From: an uncultured Planctomycetia bacterium
Lineage (GTDB): Bacteria > Omnitrophota > Gorgyraeia > Tantalellales > Tantalellaceae
Assembly: GCA_964421015.1 (NCBI GenBank)
Contig: CAYQUS010000004.1
Span: 53,744 to 117,743 of the forward strand
Direction: 5' to 3'
Length of the DNA: 64,000 nucleotides
A program made the translations under genes and the position numbers. How positions within the stretch are numbered: the stretch's first letter is position 1; each line of letters begins with the position of its first letter. Below the pieces are notes generated by a model. The model searched no databases and was not told the origin of the DNA. It worked only from the letters and a program-made list of their open reading frames with translations. Below, piece by piece: positions 1 through 54,884 of this stretch.

Positions 1-1243
1 CGTATTTCTGTTTAGTCAATGTAATGTCACCGCTCAAAACGTTGTCGGTAGCGGTGAAACAGTCTATTCCGGCCACGAATTTATTCTCCACCCCGCGCTC
101 CGGGAAAAATAGCCCTATTTCGGCTTTCGGTTTGAACTCGAAAGAGTCTATCCTGTGATTGACTTCGTAAGGATTACTCCCACCCCTGGAAACGGAAGCC
201 GTCCTGCGCGACCTGTACGAGGTAAGAGCGGAAACAGCCCATTCTCCGGCGGTAAAAGACGATAAAATCCTGGGTATGGCCGTAAAGTAATAATCCTCCG
301 TTTTTGCCCTGTCATTTGGGAACCGGGAAGCTCTCGTTCCGTCGCTTTGTATGTTGCCGGGATACAAAGCCCCCGGCTGGCCATACCAGTCCCTGTGGTA
401 AGCCGACGAGAATTCTATCTCAAACGGATCCGCCGGCGTCATCGTAAGAGAACCGAAAACATCGTCGGCCTCAAGATTATTATTGACCCTGTATCCGTCA
501 GAGTCCTTATGCGCGAAATTAAAAAAATACCCTATGGATTTCTCGGAACCTTCCGCGGAAATATATTCTTTATGGGACCTAAAACTTCCCAAAGCCTGAG
601 CGTACTTTATCCGGTGCCCCTTTTTCCCGCGTTTGGTGATTATATTCACCACTCCTCCCGAGGCGTTGTCTCCGTAAAGCACCGAATTCGCCCCCTTAAC
701 TATTTCTATCCGATCTATGGAAGCTATATCTACCTGCGAAAGATCTGCCCCGGACATATCTATCTGATTCATACGGCGCCCGTCAATAAGCACATCGTAG
801 TTCAAAAGCCCGGTTTCACCGAACCCCATCATATCTACGTTATTGTCCTTGGAATTACCCATGTACCCGTTAATGTTTATACCGGCCTTGCGAAAAAGTA
901 CGTCTTGCACACTGCGAGCGGCGGAAAGCTCCATCTCTTCAGATGTTATCACCGTGACGTTCTTGTTGATATTTGTGGTGTATTCAGGCGTCCTGCCCGG
1001 GGTCGACACTATGCGCGAGGCGTCAAAAACGGGAAGCAGCAAGGCCTCCGCCGGAGCGACCATGCTTTTTGATGTCTCCTTTCCGAATACCGGAGCCAGG
1101 ACCATCTCGACTGGCCCTGTAATAATGTCGGACACCCCGATTTTATTTTTTTTCGCATCAGATCGCGGTGGTTCTTCCTCACATTTAACAATACCCGAAT
1201 ATGCAAATGTCAATAAAACCACTAGAAACCATGTCCTGCGCAT
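1..1243 (-). CDS. TonB-dependent outer-membrane receptor, BtuB-like. N-terminal part only; the C-terminus lies beyond the window start
   Basis: Hand translation of the minus strand from the ATG at 1243 (SD GGAGG 5 nt upstream) gives MRRTWFLVVLLTFAYSG... (signal peptide) followed by a plug domain (NVTVITSEEMELSAARSVQDVLFRKAGIN...IDGRRMNQ...IASIDRIEIVKGANSVLYGDNASGGVVNIITKRG). There is no stop before position 1. The ORF track omitted it because it is open-ended. It lies directly downstream of a cobalamin riboswitch. Confidence 0.85.
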   Translation of the reverse strand, partial: MRRTWFLVVLLTFAYSGIVKCEEEPPRSDAKKNKIGVSDIITGPVEMVLAPVFGKETSKSMVAPAEALLLPVFDASRIVSTPGRTPEYTTNINKNVTVITSEEMELSAARSVQDVLFRKAGININGYMGNSKDNNVDMMGFGETGLLNYDVLIDGRRMNQIDMSGADLSQVDIASIDRIEIVKGANSVLYGDNASGGVVNIITKRGKKGHRIKYAQALGSFRSHKEYISAEGSEKSIGYFFNFAHKDSDGYRVNNNLEADDVFGSLTMTPADPFEIEFSSAYHRDWYGQPGALYPGNIQSDGTRASRFPNDRAKTEDYYFTAIPRILSSFTAGEWAVSALTSYRSRRTASVSRGGSNPYEVNHRIDSFEFKPKAEIGLFFPERGVENKFVAGIDCFTATDNVLSGDITLTKQKY

Positions 1244-1329
1244 GCGTCCTCCGTCTTTTGGGGCATTCGGGCTTTACCGTTGCGCGACAGCTGCGAAATT
1301 TCATCGCATTTCCCCCTGTGAGAAACAAA

Positions 1330-1361
1330 CCCCCCCGGCGATGAACTTCCCCGCCGGGGGG
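1330..1361 (-). terminator. Intrinsic terminator (riboswitch expression platform) between the cobalamin aptamer and the receptor start codon
   Basis: Minus strand: CCCCCCGGCG-GGGAAGTTCAT-CGCCGGGGGG, a 10-bp GC stem, followed by GTTTGTTTCT. Confidence 0.6.
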
Positions 1362-1424
1362 CTACCGTTTTGACCCCTCAACACCGTCCCGGCCTCCTCG
1401 GGCCGTTACGTCACTTTAAAACCA

Positions 1425-1600
1425 AGGGCAGGTCTTCTGGCTCAACCTCTCTTTAGGGAACCTTCCCGTCCTTTGGACAGTGGCGTTCTAGCCCGAAAGT
1501 TCCGCGTCTTTTACGCGGACGGTTTTACAGCGGCGGGACCGCGCCCGATTTCAACGGGCTTCCCTATTAAAGCCTTTCATAACACAAAAGGCTACCCTTA
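1425..1600 (-). promoter_or_regulatory. Adenosylcobalamin (B12) riboswitch
   Basis: Minus strand reads AATAGGGAAGCCCGTTGAAATCGGGCGCGGTCCCGCCGCTGTAAAACCG...GCCACTGTCCAAAGGACGGGAAGG...GAGCCAGAAGACCTGCCC. This matches the conserved cobalamin-riboswitch core (AGGGAA, GGTGAAAtCC-like segment, GCGGTCCCGCC.CTGTAA) and the B12 box (AGYCMGGAGACCKGCC). Confidence 0.85.
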
Positions 1601-1634
1601 AGATCTAATGATCCTTTTCACTTCATTGTTGCGC

Positions 1635-2138
1635 CTATCGAGCAAGCAAAAAATTACTATACCGCGATCCTCCGAAAGATCTTACGAAAAACCCATAAAC
1701 CGAGAAAAGTATCGCTGAAAATATAAGATTCCCTGCGATCATATTCCTGAGAAATGGTAAAGCCATGGCGTAGCAGTTAAGTAACCCCTGAAAAGTAGGG
1801 GGGTACCAGAACAACCATACACCAAAGTTTGAAATGACGAAGAACATCAGGACTCCCCCCAATGTCATAAAAAAAACTCCGAGAGGACCGGTCCTACCCT
1901 TCAGAAGGGTTCCCGCTATGCCAACGATCAAAAAACCTCCCCAGGTAAACGGAATAATATCGTGAAAGCCTATGATCGCATCCGTGAGGACCATAACCGC
2001 CAGAGGAACCCATGGGGCTATCCGTCGGTCCAAATAGGCTCCCGAAAAAACAGCTATAGAAATAATGGGAGCCGCGTTGTGATCAAGCGGTAAAAGCCTC
2101 AAAGCGAACCCGGCAAGAATTAGCAAGTACGCCAGCAT
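1635..2138 (-). CDS. Small polytopic inner-membrane protein of unknown function (about 5 TM helices; N-terminal LLPLDHNxAPI motif)
   Basis: 167-aa ORF that is hydrophobic throughout. No catalytic motif recognised. Confidence 0.5.
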   Translation of the reverse strand: MLAYLLILAGFALRLLPLDHNAAPIISIAVFSGAYLDRRIAPWVPLAVMVLTDAIIGFHDIIPFTWGGFLIVGIAGTLLKGRTGPLGVFFMTLGGVLMFFVISNFGVWLFWYPPTFQGLLNCYAMALPFLRNMIAGNLIFSAILFSVYGFFVRSFGGSRYSNFLLAR

Positions 2139-46056: not shown

Positions 46057-46132
46057 TGGCAGGAGAGACAGGCCTCGAACCTGCAACCCCCGGTTTTGGA
46101 GACCGGTGCTCTGCCAATTGAGCTACTCTCCT
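46057..46132 (-). tRNA. tRNA-Trp (anticodon CCA)
   Basis: Minus strand AGGAGAG-TA-GCTC...CTCCAAA...CTCTCCT-G-CCA folds as a cloverleaf. Lies between rpmG and secE. Confidence 0.85.
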
Positions 46133-47779: not shown

Positions 47780-47855
47780 TGGAGCCCTCGGCCGGAATTG
47801 AACCGGCGACCCCATCCTTACCATGGATGTGCTCTACCGGCTGAGCTACAAGGGC
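47780..47855 (-). tRNA. tRNA-Thr (anticodon GGT)
   Basis: Minus strand GCCCTTG-TA-GCTC-AGCCGGTA-GAGC...CATCC-ATGGTAA-GGATG...GCCGG-TTCAATT-CCGGC-CGAGGGC-T-CCA. 76 nt. Confidence 0.85.
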
Positions 47856-49560: not shown

Positions 49561-49634
49561 GCGAGCGTAGCACAATGGTAGTGCAGAAGCCTTCCAAGCT
49601 TCCTACGTGGGTTCGATTCCCATCGCTCGCTCCA
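49561..49634 (+). tRNA. tRNA-Gly (anticodon TCC)
   Basis: GCGAGCG-TA-GCAC-AATGGTA-GTGC-A-GAAGC-CTTCCAA-GCTTC...GTGGG-TTCGATT-CCCAT-CGCTCGC-T-CCA. Confidence 0.85.
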
Positions 49635-54404: not shown

Positions 54405-54489
54405 GGTGGGGAGGGAAGGATTCGAACCTTCGAAGGCGTAAGCCGGCAGATTTACAGTCTGATGCGTTTGGCCACTTCGCTACCTCCCC
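54405..54489 (-). tRNA. tRNA-Tyr (anticodon GTA), class II with a long variable arm
   Basis: Minus strand GGGGAGG-TA-GCG...CTGTAAA...long variable arm...GAAGG-TTCGAAT-CCTTC-CCTCCCC-A-CCA. 85 nt. Confidence 0.85.
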
Positions 54490-54808: not shown

Positions 54809-54884
54809 TGGAGCCGGCGGAGGGATTTGAACCCCCGACAGGCTGATTACAAATCAGCTACTCTACCAACTGAGTTACGCCGGC
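54809..54884 (-). tRNA. tRNA-Thr (anticodon TGT)
   Basis: Minus strand GCCGGCG-TA-ACTC-AGTTGGTA-GAGT-A-GCTGA-TTTGTAA-TCAGC-CTGTC-GGGGG-TTCAAAT-CCCTC-CGCCGGC-T-CCA. Confidence 0.85.

Follow-up and report, generated by a model that had tools for sequence, protein, structure and literature searches.

Both tandem riboswitches and cobalamin riboswitches in front of genes for outer-membrane receptors are commonplace. The L5-L13 kissing loop is common to all classes of cobalamin riboswitches (PMC7367189), and the class-II riboswitch env8 works by this interaction (PMC6158498). Class-II aptamers are described as having a P3-P6 junction, no P2 arm, a simply capped P6, and a bulged J1/3 (PMC7367189). 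Sherlock et al. 2022 counted 26 AdoCbl doublets and named, as bi-mechanism tandems, SAM-II followed by SAM-V as well as some SAM-II doublets; not every tandem in that survey was checked for mixed mechanisms, and AqCbl (class II) was among the classes never found in tandem (PMC9481103). In a contiguous-riboswitch survey from 2025, all cobalamin models were pooled in one family, so that mixed tandems were neither reported nor excluded. In the searchable literature (AqCbl together with tandem, and Omnitrophota together with cobalamin), we found no mixed class-I/class-II cobalamin tandem.

Here, we analyzed the leader of a gene for a TonB-dependent receptor at one end of a 64,000-nucleotide stretch of DNA from an uncultured Omnitrophota bacterium (the window in the following). 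By its sequence features, the region carries cobalamin aptamers of class I and class II in tandem and goes beyond an ordinary pair of a riboswitch and a receptor gene (Table 1). We consider it probable that the leader holds two complete and independent cobalamin riboswitches in series, both of them OFF switches, of which the first would terminate transcription and the second would block translation.

Table 1. Features of the receptor leader and its two flanking genes, listed in the direction of transcription (window positions)
Feature	Position	Strand	Description
DUF6580 membrane protein gene	1635..2138	-	Pfam PF20221, E 2.1e-39; upstream of both switches
Riboswitch 1 aptamer	1614..1410	-	RF00174; class-I cobalamin, with P6 extension and B12 box
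P13/L13 hairpin of riboswitch 1	1385..1410	-	stem C1405-C1401 with G1394-G1390, loop CGAGGA 1400..1395
Intrinsic terminator of riboswitch 1	1321..1362	-	10-bp GC stem 1361..1352 with 1340..1331, U tract GUUUGUUUCU 1330..1321
Riboswitch 2 aptamer	1330..1253 (core 1316..1259)	-	RF01689; class-II cobalamin, no P6 extension
Shine-Dalgarno GGAGG	1252..1248	-	read from the sequence; in the 8-nt linker (J1/13) from aptamer 2 to the start-codon hairpin
Predicted P13/L13 of riboswitch 2	1230..1244	-	stem C1244-A-U-G1241 with C1233-A-U-G1230, loop CGCAGGA 1240..1234
TonB-dependent receptor gene, 5' part (414 codons)	1..1243	-	signal peptide and Plug domain; runs off the window

Two aptamers in the leader of a receptor gene

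The leader contains two Rfam matches above the gathering score and no ORF between them. The first match, to RF00174, has a score of 101.2 bits (gathering score, 31.5; E value, 3.8e-24) and covers model positions 1 to 189; the B12 box AGCCAGAAGACCUGCC and GCCACUG...GGGAAGG align with the consensus, and the aptamer has the long P6 extension (P7-P11). A few nucleotides after this aptamer, the P13 hairpin, with a core stem at 1405..1390 and a 3-bp extension to 1410..1385, folds at −13.4 kcal/mol, and its loop is complementary to the L5 loop of the aptamer (UCCCG, 1538..1534), with which it is predicted to kiss. The P13 stems covary among lineages (GGCC/GGCC, AACC/GGUU, and ACC/GGU), and L13 is CGAGGA in four of the lineages with the tandem and CGCGGA in the fifth (L097). 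L5 of class-I aptamers is invariant, and therefore the L5-L13 loops show no covariation. By a simple search of 68 class-I leaders, a hairpin with a CG-N-GGA loop was found at this position in 25.

The terminator hairpin downstream of P13 (C1361-G1352 paired with C1340-G1331, loop at 1351..1341) has a folding energy of −26.2 kcal/mol and is followed by an interrupted U tract. The region from 1412 to 1318 folds at −46.8 kcal/mol (z = −3.2), and none of 200 shuffled sequences was as stable. A simple consensus scan for terminators did not flag this hairpin because its loop of 11 nt exceeds the limit of 8 nt in that scan. Equivalent hairpins with a U tract but different stem sequences were identified by folding in L089 and L091 and by eye in L096 and L097; among lineages, the stems differ yet stay paired. 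In strain variants of the window species, G1362A together with G1330U lengthens the terminator stem at its base by one A-U pair, and with C1340U, the position stays paired as G-U. Two anti-terminators are candidates, one formed by GGGGU (1377..1373) with GCCCC (1362..1358) and the other by the 3' strand of P13 (GCCGGG) with CCCGGC; folding of the nascent RNA did not decide between the two.

When the leaders were read directly, L092, L009, and the tandem leaders all had an AAAACGG tract followed by a GC hairpin with a U tract. AAAACGG lies just before the 5' strand of the terminator (1371..1365 in the window, 2956-2962 in L092, and 2381-2387 in L009) and is invariant in the tandem and class-I-only leaders read directly; part of it may serve as the A tract for pairing with the U tract.

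The second match, to RF01689 (AdoCbl-II), scores 51.5 bits (gathering score, 36.5), covers model positions 1 to 81, and has an E value of 1.3e-9 in a scan of the whole window against all Rfam families. This aptamer occupies all of the sequence from the terminator to the Shine-Dalgarno sequence; it starts with the first base of the U tract and ends 1 nt before GGAGG. It has a four-way junction of P3-P6, no P2 arm, a P6 capped by a loop of 6-7 nt, and, in the window, a bulged J1/3; its L5 loop is UCGCG (1287..1283). P1 is weak, with the U tract of the terminator as its 5' strand: in the window, four of six pairs form around a 7-nt bulge, and L089, L091, and L054 have two to four mismatches, on which grounds we rejected P1 as a conserved switch helix. 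The match is also above threshold in these three relatives (44.0 bits in L089, 47.5 bits in L091, and 42.3 bits in L054). Minimum-free-energy folding of aptamer 2 was uninformative (z = +0.45), as expected for an aptamer that depends on tertiary structure.

In a leader alignment of three lineages, 55 of 59 columns of the core of aptamer 2 (93%) are invariant, while the corresponding numbers are 111 of 233 (48%) for aptamer 1 and 10 of 31 for the terminator. Strains of the window species differ by 2 to 10 SNPs in the leader, none of which is in aptamer 2. In an alignment of aptamer 2 and the start region from six lineages, with 22 pairs considered, 97% of the cells hold standard pairs (100% in P3-P6), and five pairs have changed on both sides (eight cells). 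The covariation score was reached by none of 500 shuffles, and only 21-62% of the cells pair when the partners are slid by one to three columns. Three of the compensatory pairs are in P4 (UGCGA/UCGCA versus CACGG/CCGUG), and J1/3 differs in every lineage. As judged from these alignments, conservation in the leader is highest in aptamer 2 together with the small start-codon hairpin.

The preliminary description of this region had recognized one riboswitch with its terminator in front of the receptor gene. The class-I riboswitch is borne out by the match to the full RF00174 model, which includes the core and B12 box quoted there, and the GC hairpin with its T tract is present at 1361..1321; all sequence features named there were confirmed, and aptamer 1 begins 14 nt beyond the boundary given (1600). 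What was overlooked is the second aptamer: the 78 nt between the terminator and the Shine-Dalgarno sequence, treated as a plain spacer, are a class-II cobalamin aptamer. Adenosylcobalamin was named as the ligand, which is an assumption from class membership.

GGAGG and the receptor ATG (1243..1241) are where the same description placed them, and the reading frame that starts there is open for 414 codons up to the edge of the window and encodes a Plug domain (E value, 2.1e-21). On a 51.5-kb contig from the same organism (L001), the receptor is complete with 720 aa, a Plug domain, and a beta-barrel domain. The suggestion that the ORF was missed and that annotation would miscall the region traces back to the window edge: the ORF list omits ORFs that run off the window, and for this reason, only short spurious ORFs were listed in the receptor region. 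Nine public contigs encode the neighboring DUF6580 protein, and wherever the receptor is complete on them, gene callers find the same ATG and the 720-aa product. The full receptor was thereby recovered beyond the window, but on L001, neither btuFCD nor any ABC-transporter genes are present within 10 kb on either side of the receptor gene. Beyond the window, L001 encodes a peptidase M16, Memo, a patatin, a DUF1844 protein, an LPG-synthase-like protein, dehydroquinase II, an M24 peptidase, and EF-P. Five ordinary-looking tRNA genes are found far off in the window (46060-46132, 47783-47855, 49561-49631, 54407-54489, and 54812-54884).

By the NCBIfam cut-offs, the protein is a TonB-dependent receptor but not a BtuB equivalog (100.8 versus 599.7 bits for TIGR01779 and 83.1 versus 836 for NF007926). 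Because these scores are far below the cut-offs, a corrinoid or B12 substrate is suggested by the regulation of the gene and not by orthology. Homologues of the receptor are found nearly exclusively in Candidatus Omnitrophota MAGs. The DUF6580 gene ends 20 nt before riboswitch 1, and synteny is conserved. The predicted fold of the DUF6580 protein is that of the S component of an ECF transporter, with BtuM among the top fold matches; however, searches of PDB sequences, NCBIfam models, and the literature returned nothing for DUF6580, and distant DUF6580 genes adjoin neither receptor genes nor B12 genes. A link between DUF6580 and B12 transport is, therefore, speculative.

Occurrence of the tandem in Omnitrophota

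The order class-I aptamer, P13, terminator, class-II aptamer, Shine-Dalgarno sequence, and AUGCGCAGGACAU was found in five lineages, i.e., the window species, L089/L090, L091, L096, and L097. L089 and L091 encode the closest relatives of the receptor (79% and 69% protein identity, respectively), and in both, a match to RF00174 is followed by a match to RF01689 that ends ∼10 nt before the ATG. L096 and L097 were found among the relatives of the receptor of L054 and have the full tandem. A covariance model built without these two lineages matches both of them (118.2 and 103.5 bits, respectively), and a profile of 33 Rfam-validated class-I aptamers matches L096 with an E value of 1e-21 and L097 with an E value of 1e-28; the same profile gave no match in L054 or L051. 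In an exact-pattern scan of metagenome contigs for the subtype of aptamer 2, only the window species itself was recovered and no new lineages. Judged by the sequences compared, the tandem is confined to these five Omnitrophota lineages.

We also carried out a census of 80 species-representative loci that encode other relatives of the receptor. A cobalamin riboswitch precedes the gene in 66 of them, namely, a class-I aptamer only in 64 and a class-II aptamer only in two (L051 and L054); none has both. In L054, the class-II aptamer is the sole riboswitch and is followed by the same Shine-Dalgarno sequence, first codons, and start-codon hairpin. The class-I-only leaders of L092 and L009, when read directly, have the same design of P13 and terminator as the tandem. 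Each half of the tandem, thus, occurs alone in relatives, and therefore each half is a self-sufficient riboswitch.

Two widely divergent receptors share the class-II module and the first codons (MRRT.F), as seen when the receptor of the window (1..1243) is compared with those of L054 (2450-4576), L096 (1501-3633), and L097 (1501-3648). The latter three are only 34% identical to the receptor of the window, while their neighboring DUF6580 genes are 57-60% identical to that of the window. In L089 and L091, DUF6580 is as close to that of the window as in L054, L096, and L097, and the receptors are 69-79% identical. The class-I-only loci L092, L093, and L009 have closer receptors (53-56%) and more distant DUF6580 genes (48-49%). 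It may be that the receptor body was exchanged while the leader in front of it was conserved.

Other leaders vary the layout. A stable but unconserved hairpin spacer separates the terminator from aptamer 2 in L089 (2875-2912), L091 (2880-2914), L096 (∼1381-1413), and L097 (∼1282-1407), and class-I-only L009 has a stable hairpin spacer between the terminator and the Shine-Dalgarno sequence (2430-2473). The window is without such a spacer, and the U tract doubles there as the 5' edge of aptamer 2. In L033 (2180-2316), L034 (2201-2342), and L035 (1986-2124), of which two are Candidatus Aceula, the matches to RF00174 are unusually short (137-142 nt), and the model of the class-II module also matches with 32-45 bits; these aptamers may be class-II-like or hybrids that Rfam assigns to class I. 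In the more distant relative L051, the class-II aptamer stands alone (1940-2014), and a hairpin with a T tract follows ∼60 nt later (2070-2125). This hairpin resembles a terminator more than it does a start-codon hairpin, in which case class-II aptamers in this receptor family would use both kinds of expression platform.

Start-codon hairpin, proposed mechanism, and alternative readings

The start codon of the receptor gene is contained in the predicted P13 stem of riboswitch 2, and the predicted L5-L13 kissing pairs (G1285-C1238, C1284-G1239, and G1283-C1240) involve codon 2. On its own, the start-codon hairpin is weak (−1 to −5 kcal/mol), and at its outer position, one lineage has a C-G pair, two have an A-U pair, and three have a C.U mismatch; GGAGG is kept in all six lineages with the class-II module. 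The motif ATGCGNAGNACATNG is found only where a class-II aptamer is directly upstream (13 of 95 loci, in four independent lineages), and it also occurs next to a class-II aptamer in L096 and L097, which are outside the 95 loci. The sole substitution in L5 of aptamer 2 is a G-to-A change in L091 (at window position 1285), and it is matched by a synonymous C-to-U change in codon 2 (at 1238), so that the three-pair interaction is kept. By duplex energies, the compensated combinations reach −3.2 and −1.5 kcal/mol versus +0.6 and −1.1 kcal/mol for the uncompensated ones. This is one compensatory event among six lineages, and the palindromic GCGC site makes another kissing register possible. We therefore regard the kissing pair of riboswitch 2 as supported by sequence comparison but not proven.

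The two regulatory loops are near-copies of each other, i.e., CGAGGA (1400..1395) after aptamer 1 and CGCAGGA (1240..1234) at the start codon, the latter resembling the CG-N-GGA partner of class-I aptamers. This likeness may reflect chance, shared ancestry of the expression platforms, or cross-talk, and duplex energies favor the cognate loop pairs only modestly. We considered cross-kissing of the class-I L5 (UCCCG) with the start-codon loop and rejected it: the duplex is weaker (−2.1 versus −3.0 and −3.2 kcal/mol), the GGA-to-GAA change in L091 would break the pairing, and the loop is also present in L054, which has no class-I aptamer.

In the mechanism that we propose, L5 of corrinoid-bound aptamer 1 would kiss the CGAGGA loop of P13 (1405..1390), by which the GC hairpin and U tract (1361..1321) could form and transcription would end at ∼1325. 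Transcripts that escape termination would run on through riboswitch 2 (1330..1253). L5 of corrinoid-bound aptamer 2 (G1285-C1284-G1283) would then kiss codon 2 (C1240-G1239-C1238) in the loop of the weak hairpin whose stem holds the AUG; this would lock the start codon and bury the adjacent Shine-Dalgarno sequence (1252..1248), so that ribosomes could not start. Synthesis of the receptor would require that corrinoid is scarce at the first checkpoint and at the second. The first switch has a terminator and the second abuts the Shine-Dalgarno sequence and start codon, as in a bi-mechanism tandem with a transcriptional switch first and a translational switch second. No ORF fits between the two because the U tract runs into aptamer 2 at 1330 and leaves no unassigned bases.

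An alternative with the same architecture and different inputs is possible but somewhat doubtful. In this reading, the two aptamers prefer different corrinoid forms, for instance, AdoCbl for class I and methyl- or aquocobalamin for class II, or cobamides with different lower ligands, and the leader is a NOR gate that turns off the receptor when either form is plentiful. That class I and Cbl-IIa were originally assigned to AdoCbl and HyCbl/MeCbl, respectively (PMC7367189), fits with this idea, as does the Cbl-IIa layout of aptamer 2 with its simple P6 loop and, in the window, bulged J1/3; moreover, five lineages keep two structurally different aptamers instead of one that was duplicated, which hints at different jobs. 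However, class-II members span MeCbl-selective, AdoCbl-selective, and non-discriminating riboswitches, and the determinant, J1/3, is variable (PMC6158498). J1/3 is indeed different in each of the lineages compared here. Selectivity is not predicted by anything in the sequence, and whether the two aptamers read the same or different B12 forms cannot be told from it. In addition, SAM-II/SAM-V tandems are a case of two aptamer classes that sense one ligand (PMC9481103). Tentatively, the gate could operate at two levels, with class I reading the coenzyme form during transcription and class II reading methyl- or aquocobalamin, or another cobamide, on the finished mRNA.

For two OFF switches in series to act as proposed, both elements would have to lie on one transcript, as we assume here. 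It is unlikely that a promoter between the terminator and aptamer 2 instead gives rise to two separate transcripts, in which case the class-I aptamer and its terminator would only gate read-through from the DUF6580 operon, while the class-II aptamer alone would control the receptor's own mRNA. The spacers of ∼40-150 nt between the terminator and aptamer 2 in L089, L091, L096, and L097 could hold a promoter; moreover, riboswitch 1 starts only 20 nt past the stop codon of DUF6580, and our promoter scan, a weak test for Omnitrophota, found no promoter-like site upstream of it. However, in the window, aptamer 2 begins within the terminator, with the U tract as its 5' edge, and the two switches leave no space for a promoter between them. 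The same scan, with the same weakness, found no promoter-like sites between the elements and no sigma-70-like site on the sense strand of the L089 and L091 spacers, and the spacers fold into stable hairpins.

Finally, it is very improbable that the RF01689 match is a decaying relic or a chance match and that regulation is by the class-I aptamer and terminator alone: aptamer 2 has a weak P1, and class I alone suffices in most relatives (64 of 80), but the E value holds for the whole window and all Rfam families, the core of aptamer 2 stayed 93% invariant while other parts of the leader diverged, P4 has compensatory changes, and the class-II module is the sole riboswitch in L054.

Comparison with described riboswitches

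If the two inputs differ, then the leader would be the first described tandem with a class-II cobalamin riboswitch, and one could use it as a natural system to study why aptamers of different upper-ligand selectivity are kept in cells. The five Omnitrophota lineages provide natural examples, and the halves that stand alone in relatives are built-in controls. With this system, one could test directly if the two classes respond to different B12 forms within the same cell and what a second, translational checkpoint adds. There is also a practical warning, i.e., a riboswitch match and a terminator do not imply that the remaining leader is empty.

With the class-I riboswitches in front of btuB-type receptor genes (RF00174), riboswitch 1 shares the full aptamer, the B12 box, and the P6 extension and, as predicted here, the L5-L13 kissing design, the OFF logic, and the control of an outer-membrane receptor. 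Here, in contrast, the platform is an intrinsic terminator, the riboswitch is the first of two, and the receptor is not a BtuB orthologue by the NCBIfam cut-offs. Riboswitch 2 shares with env8 Cbl-IIa (RF01689; Johnson et al. 2012, via PMC6158498 and PMC7367189) the small aptamer without a P6 extension and, as predicted here, translational control. The short linker that leads to P13 has 8 nt here, as compared with 7 nt in env8 (PMC6158498), and the hairpin loop that kisses L5 in env8 is predicted to do so here. Different from env8, the linker contains the Shine-Dalgarno sequence, the P13 stem contains the start codon, codon 2 is the predicted kissing partner, P1 is weak, and the switch is directly behind the terminator of another riboswitch.

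With the proposed mechanism, the leader as a whole resembles the SAM-II/SAM-V bi-mechanism tandem (PMC9481103), which also combines two aptamer classes for one cofactor family with a terminator first and control of ribosome access second. The ligand family differs, and a cobalamin version is absent from that survey (PMC9481103). The AdoCbl-AdoCbl doublets and the SAM-I/AdoCbl NOR gate (Sudarsan et al. 2006; Sherlock et al. 2022) likewise have independent OFF switches in one leader; however, their cobalamin aptamers are of class I only and those described have terminators, whereas the leader described here mixes both classes and, as proposed, both mechanisms.
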